Positions 15,574-29,055 of a stretch of DNA of 64,000 nucleotides are shown here, in pieces; positions within the stretch are counted from its first letter, which is position 1, and each line of letters opens with the position of its first letter. The stretch lies in the sequence record NC_007023.1; one strand, given 5' to 3'. A program made the translations under genes and the position numbers. A model generated the notes under the pieces. It did no database searches. It was not told the DNA's origin and saw nothing but the letters and a program-made list of their open reading frames with translations. This DNA comes from Escherichia phage RB43.

Positions 15574-16106
15574 TAGTAGTTGTTAGCCCAACGACGCAGG
15601 TTTTCAGCCTGTTTCAGAGCATACAGCTTATAGATGGTTTCCGCATCCATACCCAGCGCAAGGAACTTGCACATGAAGAAATGCCACTGGTCGATCATTT
15701 CGAACAGGATTTCCAGTTTATCTTCTTCGCTCATTTCAGCGAATACCTGGTTACGCAGTTCCTGATGATTTGCTTTCCACGGCTTCCAGACACCAGAAGC
15801 AGGTTTAACACCGCGAGACATACCACCCAGAGCGGTGTAGAGTTCGCGGGTCTCGTCTGCGATCGCATCATCTTGCAGTTTCAACCAATCCAGAATTTCA
15901 CCACAGGTTTTCAGTCCATCAGGACGCGGAACCCAACTGAGGGTATCAGAAAGGCTTTGCTGTGCATGATCCTGTAGATCCAGCATAGATTGCAGAGGGT
16001 CGCCATTACGTGCCAGCACTTTTTTGTATTCATTATCAACAAATTCCAGATCGGCAGGATTTACCAGGTGCGCACAGGAATTAAAAACAGGAGTTTTATC
16101 AGTCAT
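15573..16106 (-). CDS. 56: dCTP pyrophosphatase gp56-like (MazG-like)
   Basis: Segments CAHL, ELYTALGGMSRG, EILFEMIDQWHF resemble T4 gp56. Confidence 0.7.
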   Translation of the reverse strand: MTDKTPVFNSCAHLVNPADLEFVDNEYKKVLARNGDPLQSMLDLQDHAQQSLSDTLSWVPRPDGLKTCGEILDWLKLQDDAIADETRELYTALGGMSRGVKPASGVWKPWKANHQELRNQVFAEMSEEDKLEILFEMIDQWHFFMCKFLALGMDAETIYKLYALKQAENLRRWANNY

Positions 16107-16600
16107 TTATTTGTCTCTTCATTATGAAAATTGCCGAAAATATCTTTTGCGGCATCATTGTAAGCGGCTTGTGCTTCTTCAACAGTTGCAAACGAACCTA
16201 AATGTTTTCTTTTGCCCTTGTATTGAATACTTGCAGAAAATCGGCTACCGCGAGGGTATACACCAATAGAACCGCTTGTGTTGTTTTTGCGTTTGTTGAT
16301 GTGGTTTGCATTGTTTTCCGCTGTACTTGCAGGACGCAGGTTATCAGGGAAGTCTCCTACATCGACACCTTTGATATGGTCAATCATATCAGGAAGATAC
16401 CCGAAACGCGAGTAAAATATAACACGATGTCGCATATATTTCACGCCTTTTGTTTCTATACGAGTATATCCCTTTTTGGTTTTCGTCCCAGCTTCCATAT
16501 CATTTTTAAGCCAGTAAACCTTTCCGGTATTGTAATCTATTCTAACCTTAGTCAGAAGATCCTTTATACCATCTATTTCTTTTTCGGACTTCGATCCCAT
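16103..16600 (-). CDS. HNH homing endonuclease with AP2-like DNA-binding domain
   Basis: HRVIFYSRFGYLPDMIDHIKGV HNH core and C-terminal GVYPRGSRFSASIQYKGKRKHLGSFATVEEA; overlaps primase 3' end by 28 nt. Confidence 0.7.
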   Translation of the reverse strand: MGSKSEKEIDGIKDLLTKVRIDYNTGKVYWLKNDMEAGTKTKKGYTRIETKGVKYMRHRVIFYSRFGYLPDMIDHIKGVDVGDFPDNLRPASTAENNANHINKRKNNTSGSIGVYPRGSRFSASIQYKGKRKHLGSFATVEEAQAAYNDAAKDIFGNFHNEETNK

Positions 16601-17601
16601 TGGTTGAATCTCAATTTTGCAGTTAAACCGGACACTGTATTTTCTTTCAGATACTTCGCAATGTCTGCTTTTGTAGCACCATCACTTTTAATCATTTCGT
16701 TGATATCTTTCGAAGGCCAGGGGCATTTATCCCATAACACGACCTTTTCTCCAGCATCAATCAATTTTTTTAACCTTGCGGTAGTATCTGGATGATGTCG
16801 TTCATTGTCAAGTACCCAAACACGCATATTTTTATAGGGAACCTCAGACAGTGCTAACTGTCCACCAGTGATCGCACCAGCATTATCAACAAACAAGCTA
16901 TCCAATGGCCCTTCAAGGAAGTAAACAGTTTTCAACGGATCGATGGTATCTTGACCATATATTTTCGTTGACTGTTCACATGCTTTGATAGTCATGTATT
17001 TTGCTGCTGCATTGTCACGCAAAGCACGTCCCTGGAATGATTCGATTTTACCTTTGTTGTCGAAGATAGGAATCACTAAGCGCGGTTCATCCTTCGGCAA
17101 TGGGTATGAATCAGGGTTAACAGAATTAACCAGGTGTTGCCATTGACGCGTAAACCAGAGGCGATCATATTTGTCTTTAGGTATGTGACGACCTGCAACA
17201 TACTTAACGATAGGATGATTTTCAGGTAACGTGTCCAGACGTTCACAGAACTGCAATTCAGGAATGTATTTCTTTTCTTCCTTCGGCGGTTCTGTATGTG
17301 TTGTTTTGGTTTGTTTGCGATCCTTGAACGATTCCATAAGATAATCCCTGTAATCGTCAGGGTAATAATCTTTAAGGAACACAGTAAACGGTCGGTTATA
17401 CCCACAGTTAAAACAACCACAGTTCATGTGATCGCCTTTCTTCGACGGATAGATCCAGAAACGTTTTTTGTGTTTGTCTTTCATGGAGTCGCCACAAATC
17501 GGACAACGGGAATGGATGCTCAATGCACCACCCCGTCGAACGATTTCACTTTGTGGTAATGATCCCATGATACGAGTCGCAAACTCAATATCAAGATACA
17601 T
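16573..17601 (-). CDS. 61: DNA primase gp61
   Basis: Zn finger CPICGD...CFNCGY and primase core; 342 aa. Confidence 0.85.
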   Translation of the reverse strand: MYLDIEFATRIMGSLPQSEIVRRGGALSIHSRCPICGDSMKDKHKKRFWIYPSKKGDHMNCGCFNCGYNRPFTVFLKDYYPDDYRDYLMESFKDRKQTKTTHTEPPKEEKKYIPELQFCERLDTLPENHPIVKYVAGRHIPKDKYDRLWFTRQWQHLVNSVNPDSYPLPKDEPRLVIPIFDNKGKIESFQGRALRDNAAAKYMTIKACEQSTKIYGQDTIDPLKTVYFLEGPLDSLFVDNAGAITGGQLALSEVPYKNMRVWVLDNERHHPDTTARLKKLIDAGEKVVLWDKCPWPSKDINEMIKSDGATKADIAKYLKENTVSGLTAKLRFNQWDRSPKKK

Positions 17602-17751
17602 TTTTACCTCTTTATACCGATTTTAGTAGCTCTTGCTTCGAGCAATCGATCAAGATATGATTTAGCCGCTCCCATATTCGGATGTCTATTGACAAAATCG
17701 CGAGCATTTACAATTCTTTCTTCGATTCGTTTTAGAGGAAGTTTAACAAAC

Positions 17752-18252
17752 TCATTCGGTTGTTTCAACATCTTTCATGATTTTCCGTTTACGTTTGTAC
17801 GGACGAGTAGAACCCAGAACCTTTGGCCCTTTGTTCGTGATCGCGCCAGTGGTGACACCAGAAGCGATATTTTCTACGCTACCGCCTGAATCACCCGCGA
17901 CCATTTCTTCGTTCATGATTTGACGCATTTCCGGCATGTTCAACATGATCAGTTCGTGGTCGGCTTCTGTCAGATTATAACGGCTACGCAACGAATCGTA
18001 CATACTCGTTAAGTTCATGAATCCAGACATATAAGGAACCGCGTTTAAACGGCGCTTGATGTGTCTTACAGAGCGATGGAATGGGGAATATGCTTCCTGT
18101 TCTTCCTTCGTCTTAGGGTTCTTGATTACTTCCCCTTGACCGTCCAGAATACCCAGCTTGTATGCTGTCCATTCAGTCCAGGGCTTTTTCAGTAGGCGAA
18201 TCATTCGCACACTGTAAGTTAAATCCATGTTTTTTACTAATTGGTCGCTCAT
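17752..18252 (-). CDS. hypothetical protein (166 aa)
   Basis: ORF track; basic C-terminal tail. Confidence 0.45.
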   Translation of the reverse strand: MSDQLVKNMDLTYSVRMIRLLKKPWTEWTAYKLGILDGQGEVIKNPKTKEEQEAYSPFHRSVRHIKRRLNAVPYMSGFMNLTSMYDSLRSRYNLTEADHELIMLNMPEMRQIMNEEMVAGDSGGSVENIASGVTTGAITNKGPKVLGSTRPYKRKRKIMKDVETTE

Positions 18253-18257
18253 AGTCT

Positions 18258-19037
18258 TTACTCTATTGTGAAAGTGAAAAGGTTTTGTGCGGGTTCTGGT
18301 TCGTTGAATTCCATACAGACAACTTCACACAAAGGCTTAACGCCTTTCCAATCCTCCAGATAGTACGATGTATCGACTCCGCATCCTGGGTGCATTTCAA
18401 GGCCAGTTTCATCAAGAAACTTTTTACATTTTGATGACGTTGTTGATTCGTTCTGCTGGAAGTATTGAGCACCAGAATAACGAAAGTTAGCCGACATTTG
18501 AGGAATAATGAACGTACCCGCACGGGCAATCTGTGACGCACGTTCAATAACCTTATATTCAAATTCTGCCCCAGTATACTTACCCTTAAAATCGGATGTC
18601 TTTATCTTCCCGAAAGGTGGATTGCTGATCGCCATATCAAACAGAGTATCAAACTCAGTCGTTAACGCGTCTGCATTAATCCAGGTCGCTTCCGGTACGA
18701 TACGCTTACCCAACTTATAGTATGTATGGTTCAACTCAACACAGACGATTTCACGCGGTTTTGCGTACATCATCATATGAATCATCGCGAAGGATAGCCC
18801 ACCGATACCAGCACAGAGATCAACAACACTTCCGCTTGTGCAAGCATCGATCGTGAAATCGCGAGCAAGCCCGATCGGGGTAAAGAATGCCCCTAACTCA
18901 GAATTATTCGTAAAAGCACCTTCATGGAAGTTCTCAATAATGAATAACTTCTCTTCATAGGTTAGTGCTTTGTCAGACTCCACCAGATCCATTATCTGAT
19001 TGTGTTTCTTCGTTTCCGCTTTTGTTAACTTCGCCAT
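18258..19037 (-). CDS. DNA amino-methyltransferase (N6-adenine type)
   Basis: Motif I VVDLCAGIGGLSFA and motif IV NPPFG. Confidence 0.7.
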   Translation of the reverse strand: MAKLTKAETKKHNQIMDLVESDKALTYEEKLFIIENFHEGAFTNNSELGAFFTPIGLARDFTIDACTSGSVVDLCAGIGGLSFAMIHMMMYAKPREIVCVELNHTYYKLGKRIVPEATWINADALTTEFDTLFDMAISNPPFGKIKTSDFKGKYTGAEFEYKVIERASQIARAGTFIIPQMSANFRYSGAQYFQQNESTTSSKCKKFLDETGLEMHPGCGVDTSYYLEDWKGVKPLCEVVCMEFNEPEPAQNLFTFTIE

Positions 19038-19365
19038 TGTTCCAACTATACAATAATGTTGATTCGTTTGGATAGAATTCCCACCCGTCTACATATCCTG
19101 TTTCCCAGTCAGTAGTTTGGTCAAAACCACAGATCCATTCATACACACCAGGCGGCATGTCAACGGAATCAGGAAGCCCGATATCTTCCGCACTGCGTCC
19201 ACATTCAAAGAATGAATCATGTATGTTTGGTCGAGATAATACCGTAACGTAACCTTCGTCGTCAATAGCCACAATCCATTTCGAACTATGAGGACTATCG
19301 AAAACTGGTTCTTCTGCATCAGGGATTGCTTGCATTTCCGCGTTTCCCCAGTCAAAATTGTTCAT
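18973..19365 (-). CDS. acidic hypothetical protein (130 aa)
   Basis: ORF track; overlaps MTase start by 64 nt so one boundary is uncertain. Confidence 0.4.
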   Translation of the reverse strand: MNNFDWGNAEMQAIPDAEEPVFDSPHSSKWIVAIDDEGYVTVLSRPNIHDSFFECGRSAEDIGLPDSVDMPPGVYEWICGFDQTTDWETGYVDGWEFYPNESTLLYSWNNGEVNKSGNEETQSDNGSGGV

Positions 19366-19592
19366 TTCACTAAACCCTCTTTCAAACCTTCTTTGATTGC
19401 TTTAAGAACACCAATGAACGCATCTTTACCGCCCATAGCACCGATGATAAGCATAAGCCCCATTACAAACCCTGCTGCTGCGATCCTGAAAAGGTTCCAT
19501 GCAAACGGGATAGCCATTAAAACCAACCACGGGAACGGGAATCCCATCAGCGCGTTCAGAACAAGTAAGATAAAAGCGATTGCAAGTTTCAT
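19362..19592 (-). CDS. small membrane protein (76 aa)
   Basis: ATG after AAGGAGGA; two TM helices. Confidence 0.5.
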   Translation of the reverse strand: MKLAIAFILLVLNALMGFPFPWLVLMAIPFAWNLFRIAAAGFVMGLMLIIGAMGGKDAFIGVLKAIKEGLKEGLVK

Positions 19593-19656
19593 GATGTCCT
19601 CCTTTTGTTTAATATAAGGTATCACTTTTCACATGTGATTGCAATACCTACAGATA

Positions 19657-19680
19657 CAAAAAAGCCCCGAAAGGGGCTTT
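19657..19680 (-). terminator. rho-independent terminator
   Basis: AAAGCCCCTTTCGGGGCTTTTTT on minus strand. Confidence 0.6.
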
Positions 19681-19684
19681 AATT

Positions 19685-19942
19685 TTATGCTTTGTTGATA
19701 AGATACCGAAGAACGTTTTTCGCCTGAACTTCGTTACAGCACAGTTTGAAATCTGGGTCGATTGGGAGGAAGCTCCAAAGAAACTCAACGCTACCTTCGA
19801 CATCAGCTTTAGCGCTTTTCAGCATTTCAACCAGTAAACCTCTGTTTACTACGCTGTTGACTACTGCATCGAAATAACCGCTGCTGAAATCCAGGTTAGG
19901 ATTCATCACTTCATCGTATGGGTTGTTCAGTAATGCGTTCAT
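19685..19942 (-). CDS. hypothetical protein (85 aa)
   Basis: AAAGGAGA SD. Confidence 0.45.
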   Translation of the reverse strand: MNALLNNPYDEVMNPNLDFSSGYFDAVVNSVVNRGLLVEMLKSAKADVEGSVEFLWSFLPIDPDFKLCCNEVQAKNVLRYLINKA

Positions 19943-20225
19943 GGGTATCTCCTTTTAATCTATCGTTGTCTACGGGAGACATATTATCATACTGACTACC
20001 CGTGTCAACAACTTTTAGATATCGGGAATTTTTTGCGATCCATCGCGTTAAAGCAGGGAAGATACCCGCAACAGCAATCAGCACGAACACCCATGCTGCG
20101 AATTTAATCACCGCCAGCAGAATGAGCGGAGAGAATACCAACCACCAGGACGCGGTAGCCATAAGCCCAACTTGAGCGAGTTTCAAAGCAAGCAGGATCA
20201 GGAAGATGATAGTTAAAGTTTTCAT
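19911..20225 (-). CDS. membrane protein (104 aa)
   Basis: Two TM helices; AAAGGT SD. Confidence 0.45.
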   Translation of the reverse strand: MKTLTIIFLILLALKLAQVGLMATASWWLVFSPLILLAVIKFAAWVFVLIAVAGIFPALTRWIAKNSRYLKVVDTGSQYDNMSPVDNDRLKGDTHERITEQPIR

Positions 20226-20254
20226 AGTTTACCTTTAAGGGGGCTTTCGCCCCG

Positions 20255-21691
20255 TTAGAATTCAATGTTCATAGATTTTGCGGCTTCGGCTAACTTACTT
20301 CTGTTACCCTCTGCCTGTTTTACCATAGCGCCTTGTGCTTCTTCAACTGTTTTCGGCATCTGACGACCTTTATAATCAGATTTAAAGCCGATATCGCTGT
20401 TATCTGTATCCATCCAGCGCTGATTTCCTTTGCGAACTTCAAGTTTGAAATGGTTGAAATGATTCTTATCACCATAACGAGACTTGATTTGCTTAAACAT
20501 TTGCAAGCCCTGTTCGGCTAGTTCATCCGTTTCAATCACCGCTAACATGAAGTCGGCAGTAGCTGGCAAGCCAGCAGATTCCGCAACATCACCCATGCTA
20601 ATATCAGAAGCATCCCACGCGTTACGAGTGGTTTGCGCACCTGTCCACATCACAGCATTAGTTTCTACAGCTAAACCACGAAGTTCTTCGGCAATCGCTT
20701 TAACTAAAATGTAAGTGTTTTCAGCACCACGCACACGGGTTGATGCACAGATCCCCAGGTAATCGACAATAATAACATCGGGAACAAAGTTCTTCTTCAA
20801 TTTAAGCTCTTTAATAAGCGCTTTGAAGTGGTTCGCGTTTGCCCCTGCTGTTGGGTATTGCTTGACGATTAAACGCCCGACCTTGCTTTGTTTAAGGCGT
20901 TCCATGCGGTTTTTATAATCCGCGTACTGTATATTACCGTTATCGATATCGTCCATCGACACATCAAGAAGGTTAGCATCGATACGTTTAGAACAAACGT
21001 GTTCAGCCATTTCCATACTGATATAGAGAACGTTTTTACCCGATTGCAGATAATCAGCAGCAAGAGAACAAAGCCCCAGCGATTTACCAACGTTAACACC
21101 AGCCATAAGGATGTTCAATGTTCCTCGTTCCGCACCGCCTTTTGTAATGGCGTTCAGGATCGGGATATTGAACGGGATTTTCATCGCCTTAGACTGATAA
21201 AGCATCCAGCGCTTTTCGTAGTCTTCGAAGTAATCATGACCGACCGAACTATCGAAGCTAATCGCCAACGCCTCAGCCATGATATCAGGGATAGCCCCAA
21301 CGTCAGGGATTTTATTGTTGCGTTCACCAGCAGGTTTTTCAGCGTTTGCCTGGATCTCGATTGCGCGTGACAAAGCGCGGTACATCGCTTTATCTTTGCA
21401 GTACGTTTCTGTTTCCTTCATCAACCAATCCAAATCTTCCGGCGCATTCTTCATGCTGCGGATCATCTTCTTGGTGTCTTCGTATACTACATCACTCAGG
21501 CTCTTTTTCTCAAGCGCAACTTCCAACGCAGTTTGTGAAGGAATGCTGTTGAATTCCTGAACGTGCTTATCCATTAAATCATAAAGGACTTGCGCGTTAC
21601 CTTCGAAGTAGTCGCGTTTTAAATGGGGCCATGCCTGAACAAAATACGTTCCGTTAAAAACCAGATTTGAAAATATTGTTTCGACGATCAT
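20255..21691 (-). CDS. 41: replicative DNA helicase gp41 (DnaB-like)
   Basis: Walker A GVNVGKS and long colinear similarity to T4 gp41. Confidence 0.9.
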   Translation of the reverse strand: MIVETIFSNLVFNGTYFVQAWPHLKRDYFEGNAQVLYDLMDKHVQEFNSIPSQTALEVALEKKSLSDVVYEDTKKMIRSMKNAPEDLDWLMKETETYCKDKAMYRALSRAIEIQANAEKPAGERNNKIPDVGAIPDIMAEALAISFDSSVGHDYFEDYEKRWMLYQSKAMKIPFNIPILNAITKGGAERGTLNILMAGVNVGKSLGLCSLAADYLQSGKNVLYISMEMAEHVCSKRIDANLLDVSMDDIDNGNIQYADYKNRMERLKQSKVGRLIVKQYPTAGANANHFKALIKELKLKKNFVPDVIIVDYLGICASTRVRGAENTYILVKAIAEELRGLAVETNAVMWTGAQTTRNAWDASDISMGDVAESAGLPATADFMLAVIETDELAEQGLQMFKQIKSRYGDKNHFNHFKLEVRKGNQRWMDTDNSDIGFKSDYKGRQMPKTVEEAQGAMVKQAEGNRSKLAEAAKSMNIEF

Positions 21692-21700
21692 TATTACCTC

Positions 21701-22006
21701 TTAAACCAGATTGGCGAACATTTGAAAGAAATTGTACAGCTTTACTTTCAACGCCGCCCATAAGGTCTTTTCAGGCTTTGGGAGATTTGGCTTTATTTGT
21801 GCATAGATTGCGTCGTGAACCAACGGGATCAATGCTTCTTTATCGTCGTCAGGTGTACTGAATTCAACTTTCAGACCGTTGTCCCAATAAACCTTATGGA
21901 TGTACACCAAATGAGGAACATCGTGTTCATCGTTGATCAGCAATTCCTGAATAACATCTTGCATTGCTTCATCAAGAATCTTTTTTGTTTTCTGTTCAAT
22001 TTCCAT
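21701..22006 (-). CDS. hypothetical protein (101 aa; occupies gp40 position)
   Basis: Position between uvsX and 41. Confidence 0.4.
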   Translation of the reverse strand: MEIEQKTKKILDEAMQDVIQELLINDEHDVPHLVYIHKVYWDNGLKVEFSTPDDDKEALIPLVHDAIYAQIKPNLPKPEKTLWAALKVKLYNFFQMFANLV

Positions 22007-23283: not shown

Positions 23284-25989
23284 TTACCAGTCATCACCAA
23301 ACAATGTGTTCAGGGATGCGCGTTTTTCGTAGTCAATTTTACATGCTTCCGTGATGTTTTTCAACGGACTAATCACATGTTTTTCAAATAATCCGTTGTA
23401 GTCTACCCATTTGAGAATATCACTTTCAATCTCATTTGGTAAACGACTACCGGATTGCCATGCAATGCAATCAGATTGCCACGGATTTTTATCACGTAAA
23501 GGCAGAACCATAACCTTTTCACCTTCCATAATCTGCGTGATTCCTTGAATCCCGCGAGTAAGACGGTTGAAGAACAGAACACCTTTGATGTGGTTCGGAG
23601 TTCCTTTAATTGGATGCCCCGTACCATCATTGTATTTCGTGATATTATTAGCAGATGATACACCAGCAATCTCTCGATAGTCAAGCGCCTTATACTCTTC
23701 TTCAAACACTTTGAAAGATTCGTGTAATGACTCTTCACCTTCTTGCAGAATGCGACGGATCGCTTCCTTTAAGAATACTTTAACTGCTGTTGGTGTACTG
23801 CTTCGCTGGGTTTCCATTCCCATGATTTTCAGCTTAGGCTTTTCATAGCGGGTTCCTTCGGAGTCCCACACGTTAGCCGCATAGCGTTTTTTCGCAGTCC
23901 AGAAACTACCCAATCCTTTCGATCCCAGAGGTGGCCCAGAAATGATTTCGCGATCCATAAACATCAAGTGTTCGACGTTGTTCATGTACTCGCATAGTTC
24001 GCGATAGCCCTTATCAATGATAGGTTCCATGCGCTCACGACTGAACTTATCCAGGAAATCAACCCAATGGTTGTTATCTCTGAACTTACTTTCACCACCA
24101 ACTTTCTCGATCACGTTATCCATACACACGTAAATTGAATCCGTGTCACAGTAACGCACGTATGCGTAATCGGTAGTGTTGCACAACTGGTTCAGGTATT
24201 CGTTAACTTTACGCTCAATCCACTGAATAGCCAACTGCCCGAACATGGTGATCGCGCTGGCGTTTCGGATATCAAAGTATCTGAAATGCTCGTTACCCAA
24301 CGCACCATAAAGGGAGTTGATACTGATTTTACGGTTAAGCTGTGCGGTGTTGGCCTGTGCGATCTTCTTCTCACAAACTTTCTTCACTGCTTTGAGCATT
24401 TGCTTAGTTAACGTTTTCAGTACCGCTTTCGATTCATCACTGAAATCAGAATAGAAATCGAAATCAGGATCGATCATTTGGTTGTGCGCGTCTGTCAGGT
24501 GTTCGAGTTCATGCTTGATTAATTCAAGATTTCGCTCACCTGCCATCATTCGTTTTTTCCACATCTTACGCTGATCAAATACTTTCTTGATCTCGACGGG
24601 GATCACGCCTTTAATGTCACGCCTGAACATCCACCCGTTAGGAGAGCAGCTAAATTCATCGCTAGGACGTGGAGCGGTCTTATTGATATATTCATCCAAA
24701 GGACGCACCGCGAAGCTGTTAGCGATTGTCTCAGGGCTTATATTCACCTGTCTGATGATAGACGGATACAGGCTGGTTAAGTCGAACGATACAATGTATT
24801 TGTATGGAGCGACAACCGGATCTTTAACATATGCGCCGTCATACGGGGTTTTCGTATGTCGTTTGTTTTCTGGTATCGCAATCTTATCTTCACGCAACGA
24901 GTTGTATATAATAGCGTCCCACGTTTTCAACGGAGACATAACCCCAGGGAAGTTAATTTTTGCGTAGTACGCAACAGACAGAACCAGTTCAATAAAGTTA
25001 CGCTTACCGTCGATATCAAGTACGCGAATAACATCAACGATGTTGTACGTGATGTACGTCTGGTGATCCTTCTGACGCAGTTCAGACAGAGAACCTTCGT
25101 AATCAACTTTGTTTTTGCCTGTTTCGTACTCAGCGATCGCGCCCAGAGAGTAAGACGGTTGCGGGGTGAAACTGAACTTTTTATAAAGATCCATCCCATC
25201 CATTTGAGACACGCCATAAATTTCGTATCCCAACTGTTCGTTTCCGTACTGGTCTGTTGTCGTCTTCGCTGTTACCTTACCGAACGGGCTAAAATGACGA
25301 ACCACGTTTTGCCCGAAAATGTTCAGGTAACGTGTGATGATGTAAGCGATATCGAATTTGTTCGAGTTCCAACCAGTAACAATTACTGGGGTTCTTTCTT
25401 TCCAATCCTTGATGTATGCAGACATCAAAGATTTTTCAGTCTGGAATGCACGATAAACGATTTTCTTCAAATCCTCTTCGCTGATTTCCTTTTCAGTATC
25501 AACTTTAGAGGCTACCCATTCATCTAAACCACCTTCAACTAGGTCATACACAAAGAACTTATCTTCAACACTATCATAGTGTGTGATTGCGTCGATTGCG
25601 TATTTTGCTTCGCGTGGATCGGGGAACTCAGGCGCTGTAACTTCGATATCGAGCGAGGCAATGCGAATACGTTCGCGGTTATATTCGATCTCATTTCGAT
25701 AGGTGTCGGAAATGTACGCCAACCTGAAATCGTCCATACCCAGCGCTTCCATACCAACATCTTTCATGCGCTGCATCCAGTTTTTAGCATCCTTGATGCA
25801 ATCAAACTTTTTCTTTATGCAGGTTTTGCCATAGATATCTTTATACGGCGAGTCAGTACCCGCCATAGCGTGTTGAAACAACGTAGGTTCATACTTTGTT
25901 TTACGAACTTGTTCGCGTCCGTCTGCGTCGATGAAGCGCTCATAGATATGATCGCCCATTTGTTCGACTGATAGATAAAATTCATTCAT
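23284..25989 (-). CDS. 43: DNA polymerase gp43 (family B)
   Basis: 901 aa; exo motifs and polymerase motifs (SLYPSII, YCDTDS) colinear with T4 gp43. Confidence 0.95.
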   Translation of the reverse strand: MNEFYLSVEQMGDHIYERFIDADGREQVRKTKYEPTLFQHAMAGTDSPYKDIYGKTCIKKKFDCIKDAKNWMQRMKDVGMEALGMDDFRLAYISDTYRNEIEYNRERIRIASLDIEVTAPEFPDPREAKYAIDAITHYDSVEDKFFVYDLVEGGLDEWVASKVDTEKEISEEDLKKIVYRAFQTEKSLMSAYIKDWKERTPVIVTGWNSNKFDIAYIITRYLNIFGQNVVRHFSPFGKVTAKTTTDQYGNEQLGYEIYGVSQMDGMDLYKKFSFTPQPSYSLGAIAEYETGKNKVDYEGSLSELRQKDHQTYITYNIVDVIRVLDIDGKRNFIELVLSVAYYAKINFPGVMSPLKTWDAIIYNSLREDKIAIPENKRHTKTPYDGAYVKDPVVAPYKYIVSFDLTSLYPSIIRQVNISPETIANSFAVRPLDEYINKTAPRPSDEFSCSPNGWMFRRDIKGVIPVEIKKVFDQRKMWKKRMMAGERNLELIKHELEHLTDAHNQMIDPDFDFYSDFSDESKAVLKTLTKQMLKAVKKVCEKKIAQANTAQLNRKISINSLYGALGNEHFRYFDIRNASAITMFGQLAIQWIERKVNEYLNQLCNTTDYAYVRYCDTDSIYVCMDNVIEKVGGESKFRDNNHWVDFLDKFSRERMEPIIDKGYRELCEYMNNVEHLMFMDREIISGPPLGSKGLGSFWTAKKRYAANVWDSEGTRYEKPKLKIMGMETQRSSTPTAVKVFLKEAIRRILQEGEESLHESFKVFEEEYKALDYREIAGVSSANNITKYNDGTGHPIKGTPNHIKGVLFFNRLTRGIQGITQIMEGEKVMVLPLRDKNPWQSDCIAWQSGSRLPNEIESDILKWVDYNGLFEKHVISPLKNITEACKIDYEKRASLNTLFGDDW

Positions 25990-28371: not shown

Positions 28372-29035
28372 TTACTTGAACTGGCTGGTTGCTTCAAGTA
28401 CAACCACGTAGGCAACGCCATTTTCGGAAGAGAATTTTGCAGCGCCCTGTGCGGAGATCAACTTTGTAATCGCTGTTGATGAACTGCATGTTGTCAATTT
28501 TCATATCGAAATTGAAAACGTTGTCACCTTCATACTCACCAACTTCAACAGAGAATGTTGATTGGCTTTCTTTACTTTTCGCGGTGATTACCAGTTTGCC
28601 GTTGATTGGTTCAACAGACAGGTCGGTCAGTTTCATCATGCGTGATGCTTTGATCAGCTTTTCGAAATCGTTAGCGCTAATCTGGAAAATCAGATCCGCT
28701 ACAGGCATTTGCAGACGCTTTTTAGGTTTGACGATAGTCGTCGGATCACATGAACGCTCAACGATTTTCATTTTCTCTCCGCGAATAACGATTTCGCCAG
28801 TGGACAGATCGTGTTTTACGTCAGCATCAGTACCAACAACGTTCATCATGTTCAGGAATGAGTTCAGATCGTAGATACCTACATCTTCGTCGATTACATC
28901 GGGAATTTCGGCTTCCGCATAAACCACGCTGTTAATAGATTTCGTCATAATGAACGAACCTTTGGTCAGCATAATAGACGGGTTGATCTGGGAGAAGTTT
29001 TTCAGGATATCAATTGTTTGTTTTGAGAATTTCAT
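28372..29035 (-). CDS. 45: sliding clamp gp45, C-terminal frame broken at homopolymer 28445-28447
   Basis: N-term MKFSKQTIDILKNF as T4 gp45; listed ORF ends in non-homologous tail RCKILFRKWRCLRGCT, while +1 frame gives GAAKFSSENGVAYVVVLEATSQFK ending TAA 28374..28372. Confidence 0.8.
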
Positions 29036-29055
29036 ATTCAACCTATAGTATTCAA

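Follow-up and report, generated by a model that had tools for sequence, protein, structure and literature searches.

A probable orphan DNA adenine methyltransferase, possibly clamp-tethered, in the replication gene cluster of Escherichia phage RB43

Introduction

Between the primase and helicase genes of Escherichia phage RB43 lies an open reading frame with the sequence motifs of a methyltransferase, and this locus raises the question of what the encoded enzyme methylates and how it is brought to its substrate. An initial annotation of the stretch analysed here (64,000 nucleotides of sequence record NC_007023.1, hereafter the window) had read the gene as a DNA amino-methyltransferase at a position that has no methyltransferase in phage T4. 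The gene is of an ordinary phage class and is already annotated, yet uncharacterised. In the 2006 paper on the RB49 and RB43 genomes the homologue of RB49 appears as no more than a weak match to 'methyltransferase small domain' (PMC1524935), and a study of phage KP15 that sought modification genes missed its homologue (PMC5219037). The T4-like phages that lack hydroxymethylcytosine, namely those of the RB43, RB49 and KP15 types, have cytosines that are essentially unmodified (PMC2993671).

Results and Discussion

Gene structure and genomic setting

The methyltransferase coding sequence (18258..19037, minus strand) runs from an ATG at 19037 to position 18258, stop codon counted in, and encodes a protein of 259 amino acids; it is defined by the ORF listing, a full-length match to the PHROG family phrog_3820 and an AlphaFold model. 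Its placement between primase and helicase agrees with the initial annotation: the genes for gp61 (16573-17601) and gp41 (20255-21691) flank it, both on the minus strand and both as annotated in phage RB16. The strand of the methyltransferase gene (minus) had not been given, nor had its motif X (GAFFTP) been mentioned. Two records of coliphage RB43 (Pseudotevenvirus) match the surrounding region (16500-21800) at 100% identity, and many relatives from Citrobacter, Cronobacter, Enterobacter and Klebsiella do so at 85-98%.

The start of the gene overlaps the 3' end of an upstream ORF of 130 amino acids (18973..19365, minus strand), which matches phrog_4953, a family with no assigned function, as far as its final residue. 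Because residues 1-15 of the methyltransferase are kept in distant homologues of a 38-sequence alignment, the ATG at 19037 is taken to be the true start despite this overlap, and the RB16 annotation, which places the start of the homologue at Met16 and so dodges most of the overlap, is probably wrong. The two genes share 65 nt (18973-19037) out of frame; the conservation of both overlapping frames suggests translational coupling, and the genes are probably co-translated. The GC content of the methyltransferase gene (~0.43) matches that of its flanks and gives no sign of recent horizontal acquisition.

Two further elements were observed near the gene. A strong GC-rich hairpin (AAAGCCCC-GAAA-GGGGCTTT, 19661-19680), with a run of T after it on the minus strand, resembles a terminator and precedes a gene block made up of small ORFs, the methyltransferase gene and genes 61.1 and 61; the KP15 annotation has a terminator and a middle promoter at the equivalent place. 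A promoter and terminator scan of the locus returned nothing beyond this hairpin upstream of the gene block, and its promoter matches were uninformative. An HNH homing-endonuclease ORF (16103-16600, minus strand; phrog_99, E=7e-46) has been inserted after gene 61, separating it from gene 56, and shares 28 nt with the gene 61 end. Genes 56 and 61 are directly adjacent in RB16 and KP15, which lack this endonuclease, and the same slot holds dam in T4.

The claim that T4 has no methyltransferase at this position is literally correct, as none lies between its genes 61 and 41, but it is misleading, since T4 dam (16846-17625) adjoins gene 61 (17935-18963) on its opposite flank. The two methyltransferases have several features in common: each is an orphan of 259 amino acids from a T4-like phage, encoded by a gene that adjoins primase gene 61. 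They are nevertheless unrelated in sequence (BLASTP E=2.6), differ in motif order and lie on opposite sides of gene 61, and the RB43 protein is not a member of the alpha-class D12 family to which T4 Dam, a GATC enzyme, belongs. A relocated T4 dam was rejected as the origin of the gene, given this lack of similarity and the genuine T4-type Dam that RB43 encodes elsewhere, outside the window (HE981739 152592-153443; 53% identity to T4 Dam).

The genomic context of the gene varies widely among phages. KP15, a Morganella phage, Phynn and POP12 carry it within the replication gene cluster at the same place as in RB43. In the Krischvirus phages RB49 (segment 1966-2805) and TB34 (segment 3001-3840), by contrast, the homologue is found between baseplate genes 8 and 9, in a late structural region and not in the replication cluster, which indicates that the gene has moved between T4-like genomes. 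The TB34 copy has terminators on its flanks. CC2, GAP32 and phiN3 have their homologues in still other contexts, while in lambdoid phages and prophages the family gene adjoins genes for ERF, a DnaB-like helicase and NinB/NinG. No neighbouring gene travels with the methyltransferase across the contexts compared, and the methyltransferase is thus an orphan. A two-gene module with the phrog_4953 ORF as specificity subunit was considered and rejected, as conservation of this ORF is confined to syntenic T4-like phages, and the homologues of RB49, CC2, GAP32, phiN3 and the lambdoid phages do not have it as a neighbour.

Catalytic domain and enzyme class

The motif I peptide reported by the initial annotation, VVDLCAGIGGLSFA, is present at residues 71-84 (18786-18827) of the intact minus-strand ORF, and so is the NPPF of motif IV (residues 139-142). 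All features of the protein given here are encoded on the minus strand. Motif X, GAFFTP, occupies residues 49-54 (18876..18893); in gamma-class N6-adenine DNA methyltransferases this motif contacts the methionine moiety of SAM. Motif I, DLCAGIGG (residues 73-80, 18798..18821), forms the SAM-binding glycine loop after strand beta1 according to both alignment and model, and the catalytic motif IV, SNPPFG (residues 138-143, 18609..18626), follows strand beta4. The order X, I, IV is that of the gamma class. Invariant positions, judged on the 38-sequence alignment with identity down to 48%, are F52, T53 and P54 in motif X, D73, C75, A76, G77, I78 and G79 in motif I, E101, and N139, P140, P141, F142 and G143 in motif IV. 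A further segment that resembles motif VI/VIII, FIIPQMS at the end of beta5 (residues 176-182, 18492..18512; I177, P179 and S182 invariant), falls inside a weak Pfam match to the DNA methylase domain Eco57I (residues 126-183, E=0.01, below threshold).

The AlphaFold model (pLDDT 89.7, pTM 0.87) has low confidence only in the loop before motif X and in the last ~10 residues, and it shows a class I Rossmann SAM-binding fold that is closest to the N6-adenine methyltransferases. The gene is intact and orphan, with conserved catalytic motifs and an adenine-N6 methyltransferase fold. The ORF almost certainly encodes a methyltransferase, and the evidence supports a (D/N)PP(F/Y) amino-methyltransferase with gamma motif order. 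With regard to the amino-methyltransferase class, the initial annotation is borne out by motif order and fold; that the substrate is DNA, as it had also held, is likely.

Compared with gamma-class DNA methyltransferases such as M.TaqI, M.BseCI, CamA, the methylase domain of MmeI and type I HsdM, the RB43 protein is about half the size, has neither a C-terminal recognition domain nor an HsdS partner, shows marginal sequence similarity and is encoded by an orphan gene with no nuclease gene nearby. The model contains no discrete target-recognition domain, with just 16 residues following the last strand. An insertion of ~55 residues between beta5 and beta7 (residues 181-236, 18329..18497), delimited by the secondary structure of the model and by conserved residues (F185, S188, F207, T211, G220, D222 and W230), is the only candidate for what may be a miniature target-recognition region.

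Family membership and the nature of the substrate

The match to phrog_3820 ('DNA methyltransferase') has E=2.1e-131 and pairs residues 1-258 of the protein with profile positions 1-254 of 255. A tblastn search found the homologue encoded in 285 phage records, among them Pseudotevenvirus, Slopekvirus, Krischvirus (RB49), Aeromonas phages, the jumbo phage GAP32 and Sinorhizobium phage phiN3, and large protein databases hold more than 1,000 homologues (415 clusters of 50% identity at E<1e-30). Some members are elaborated: P0131, P0141 and P0167 carry an additional C-terminal domain of ~130 amino acids, and P0143 and P0159 a Cys-rich domain followed by a terminal QLTLF or QLSLF.

Outside its own PHROG family the best profile match of the protein is to the DNA methyltransferase mad2 (E=2.9e-12, residues 34-181; E=4e-17 for the RB49 homologue) in PADLOC, a library of defence-system profiles, followed by PADLOC Type II MTases (E=3e-7). 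The enzyme differs from mad2 of the MADS system in that the alignment is restricted to the catalytic half (profile positions 258-396 of 492) and no defence-system partner genes accompany it. The Pfam MTS match is just at threshold and the NCBIfam matches are all far below their cut-offs; across the family, Pfam N6_Mtase matches 14 of 38 members and Eco57I 12 of 38 (E<=0.01).

An N6-adenine methyltransferase of the METTL5/PH1948 or RsmC kind, acting on host or phage rRNA, tRNA or mRNA, has to be weighed against a DNA enzyme. Searched against PDB sequences, the family profile finds PH1948, Ta1320, RsmC and METTL5 first (E=2e-5 or weaker), so that the closest solved proteins by sequence are predicted or known RNA methylases, which counts against a DNA substrate. 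The fold by itself was rejected as a guide: the model resembles the DNA enzymes M.BseCI, MmeI, HsdM and TaqI as well as the rRNA enzymes METTL5 and Erm, with METTL5 (18.2), PH1948 (17.5) and Erm/KsgA (~16), aligned over ~160-175 residues, scoring as well as the DNA enzymes, and Foldseek returned the same mix. The DNA enzymes, however, align over the N-terminal helices of the model too, the PADLOC DNA-methyltransferase profiles (E=3e-12) beat every match to an RNA methylase, the FFTP motif X and the genomic context point to DNA, and the clamp-binding tails described below would make no sense in an RNA enzyme. METTL5 and PH1948/Ta1320 are furthermore compact proteins of ~200 amino acids that act with TRMT112 on rRNA, and they have no counterpart of the 48-residue N-terminal helical region, the 181-236 insertion or the C-terminal tail of the RB43 protein, which does not show homology across its whole length as a member of that type would. 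An RNA enzyme is consequently improbable. Even more remote is a protein methyltransferase of the HemK/PrmC type, which would modify glutamine N5 in a protein of host or phage. An NPPY/F motif is found in HemK and PrmC too, enzymes that were once misannotated as DNA methylases, there are weak matches to both (PrmC NCBIfam E=0.0016, HemK E=0.028), and homologues in some phage records bear the label 'release factor glutamine methyltransferase'; such an activity is nonetheless very unlikely here. Adenine-N6 methylation of DNA is favoured because of the PADLOC DNA profiles, the FFTP-type motif X, the replication and recombination gene context and the clamp-type tails.

C-terminal tails and the sliding clamp

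Members of the family share a characteristic layout at the C-terminus: a linker that varies from 0 to ~150 residues, in many cases with abundant Pro, Ala and Glu, connects the final strand of the domain to a conserved terminal peptide. The tail of the RB43 protein (residues 246-259, EPEPAQNLFTFTIE, 18261..18302) has a Pro/Glu linker ahead of this peptide, is disordered in the model (pLDDT ~57) and is a putative ligand of the sliding clamp gp45. The pattern [LNFIT]F[TD]FxIE forms the very end of the protein in 15 of the 15 closest clusters, whose linkers differ in both length and sequence.

In other branches of the family the terminal peptide takes a familiar form. The textbook consensus for binding to the bacterial beta clamp is QL[SD]LF. 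A match to the pattern Q[LMFIV]x[LMIF]F occurs within 15 residues of the C-terminus in 56 of 268 family proteins, where ~0.1 would be expected by chance, most commonly as QLSLF (16) or QLDLF (12). The enrichment persists in a set of 150 cluster representatives (clusters of 50% identity; 21 tails, against 0.135 expected from shuffled tails) and among the top 120 matches (35 against 0.08), and the pattern was never found in the bodies of family proteins. The members with QL[SD]LF tails come from lambdoid phages and prophages, which encode no polymerase and rely on the host replisome.

T4-like phages have their own clamp, gp45, for which the C-termini of gp43, gp33 and gp55 are established, interchangeable ligands borne on variable linkers; the RB69 polymerase ends in MFDF, the peptide that was crystallised with gp45 (PMC2988020). 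In RB49 the methyltransferase homologue ends GTLSDLFDI and the DNA polymerase gp43, a known type of gp45 ligand, has the nearly identical end ASLTDLFDI, and these two are the only ones of 217 six-frame ORFs in the 49.5 kb examined whose tails have at least 4 of 8 matches. Morganella phage vB_Mm5 has a methyltransferase ending in QINVLEGI, with TLDFLEV in gp55 and SLTDVFDI in gp43. The tails of the family thus match the clamp ligands of whichever replisome the phage uses, and the resemblance to clamp-tethered enzymes extends to the exact beta-clamp consensus or to the tail of the phage's own polymerase (cf. PMC2988020). This family-wide occurrence of clamp-type tails lends support to a DNA substrate and suggests that methylation is coupled to replication. 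For the family as a whole, tethering to the clamp is a likely reading of these tails.

The case of RB43 itself is less clear-cut. Its methyltransferase ends in AQNLFTFTIE and lacks the consensus beta-clamp pentapeptide QL[SD]LF, and compared with gp43, gp33 and gp55 on T4 gp45, with the QL[SD]LF clients of the beta clamp and with eukaryotic DNMT1 on PCNA, this tail variant is atypical and its role as a ligand putative. The LFTF of RB43 and the TFDF of a relative are similar to the ends of certain gp43 proteins, namely LFDF in Pantoea phage Phynn and in a metagenomic relative and MFDF in RB69, but the match of the RB43 tail to clamp ligands is only partial (NLFTF against NTLFG, LFDF and MFDF). 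A regular expression was rejected as proof of a clamp motif in RB43: the pattern linking the tails is loose and was defined post hoc, and it matches 6 of 214 six-frame ORFs, including four in the window that are probably spurious.

These observations bear on whether the RB43 enzyme might instead be a free-standing orphan DNA adenine methyltransferase, with a tail that binds another partner or is simply a structural end. Such an enzyme would account for the lack of a close match between the RB43 tail (NLFTFTIE) and the phage's own clamp ligands, namely gp43 (SLNTLFGDDW, RASLNTLFGDDW, 23284..23316, minus strand, the comparator of established type), gp33 (TLDDFM) and gp55 (TLEMFL). The post hoc nature of the pattern speaks for it as well, as do the tail-less homologues of Aeromonas phage CC2, GAP32, phiN3 and a Vibrio phage, the existence of which indicates that the tail is not essential for activity. 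Against it, the RB43 tail has the known architecture of clamp ligands, a variable linker with an invariant end peptide throughout the closest clusters (cf. PMC2988020), and sister lineages of the enzyme bear unmistakable clamp motifs. The KP15 methyltransferase, moreover, ends in KSDLFTFTIE, and its SDLFTFTIE bridges the SDLFDI of RB49 and the RB43 form; gp43 of KP15 ends in SLNDLFGDW. Taken together, an untethered enzyme appears rather unlikely, and the clamp reading, which is strong for the family and for RB49, is suggestive for RB43. Tethering of the RB43 methyltransferase in particular is put forward tentatively, as a possibility slightly short of an even chance.

The proposed docking partner is encoded by gene 45 (28372..29041, minus strand), which in this record is split by a 2-nt deletion near 28480-28497 (GTTG--ATCTCC, compared with GTTGAAATCTCT in RB16). 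The deletion gives the clamp an out-of-frame C-terminus, with the normal ending in a separate ORF of 41 amino acids. The two bases are present in the two other records of RB43 and in every close relative, so the deletion reflects either an error of sequencing or a mutation peculiar to this stock.

A second adenine methyltransferase provides an independent comparison. The T4-type Dam proteins of RB43 and KP15 (KP15 segment 564-1415) have a C-terminal extension of 17 residues that is missing from the Dam proteins of T4 and RB49. In RB43 this extension ends in LTLDDLM, nearly the QTLDDFM of RB43 gp33, and in KP15 it ends in ETLDDLM, where gp33 ends in TTLDGFM. The Dcm-like C5 methylase of the RB43 phage type has no clamp-like tail. 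That a single phage type has two adenine methyltransferases, unrelated to each other, whose ends resemble clamp ligands makes coupling to gp45 more plausible, and an independent gain of a gp33-like tail by Dam of the RB43 type would suggest selection for clamp-coupled methylation.

DNA modification and restriction

Krischvirus TB34 has a homologue of 47% identity whose polymerase-like tail is intact. HPLC-MS detected no modified nucleosides in TB34 virion DNA (PMC13390438), and the phage is sensitive to BREX (PMC11341690), which together indicate that any methylation is sparse and does not cover the sites concerned. The HPLC-MS assay was aimed at cytosine modifications and, the host being dam+, evidently did not register methylation at the level of Dam either. 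It thus rules out dense methylation of adenines but leaves room for a sparse kind confined to specific sites. Literature searches for methylome data on RB43, Slopekvirus and KP15 yielded nothing relevant, and no methylome of any family member was found. A putative anti-restriction role of the RB43 methyltransferase is a reasonable inference.

Proposed function and evolutionary implications

The explanation that best unites these observations, and one that is moderately probable as a whole, is an orphan DNA adenine methyltransferase that is probably tethered to the clamp. The enzyme would be a solitary SAM-dependent N6-adenine methyltransferase of gamma motif order, without a separate recognition domain, and would most likely methylate the phage DNA while this is being replicated or shortly afterwards. 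Its catalytic core (residues ~49-243) would bind SAM through motifs X and I and transfer the methyl group through NPPF, with the insertion as the only part that might recognise a sequence. The last 14 residues, a flexible linker and a conserved hydrophobic and acidic peptide, may dock on gp45, in which case the enzyme would move with the clamps that remain on freshly synthesised DNA. Such methylation would probably serve to shelter the phage from restriction-type defences of the host.

On a broader scale, the members of phrog_3820, in phages and prophages alike, may be adenine methyltransferases riding the replicative clamp, with a docking peptide repeatedly exchanged to fit the replisome at hand: QL[SD]LF for the host beta clamp in lambdoid phages, and a polymerase-like tail for gp45 in T4-like phages. 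This reading is about as likely as not. Literature searches returned no bacterial or phage DNA methyltransferase described as a clamp client and no earlier description of clamp-type tails in this family. If the tails do dock, these enzymes would be, as far as found in the literature, the first clamp-recruited DNA methyltransferases of bacteria or phages, and a new class of client for both the beta and the gp45 clamps; their recruitment would also explain how a fast-replicating genome is methylated before defences see the DNA. The family, encoded in several hundred phages, is an obvious candidate for how T4-like phages that lack hydroxymethylcytosine cope with restriction. If the proposal is true, DNA methylation in these phages would be coupled to the replication fork, as a prokaryotic counterpart of DNMT1 and PCNA.
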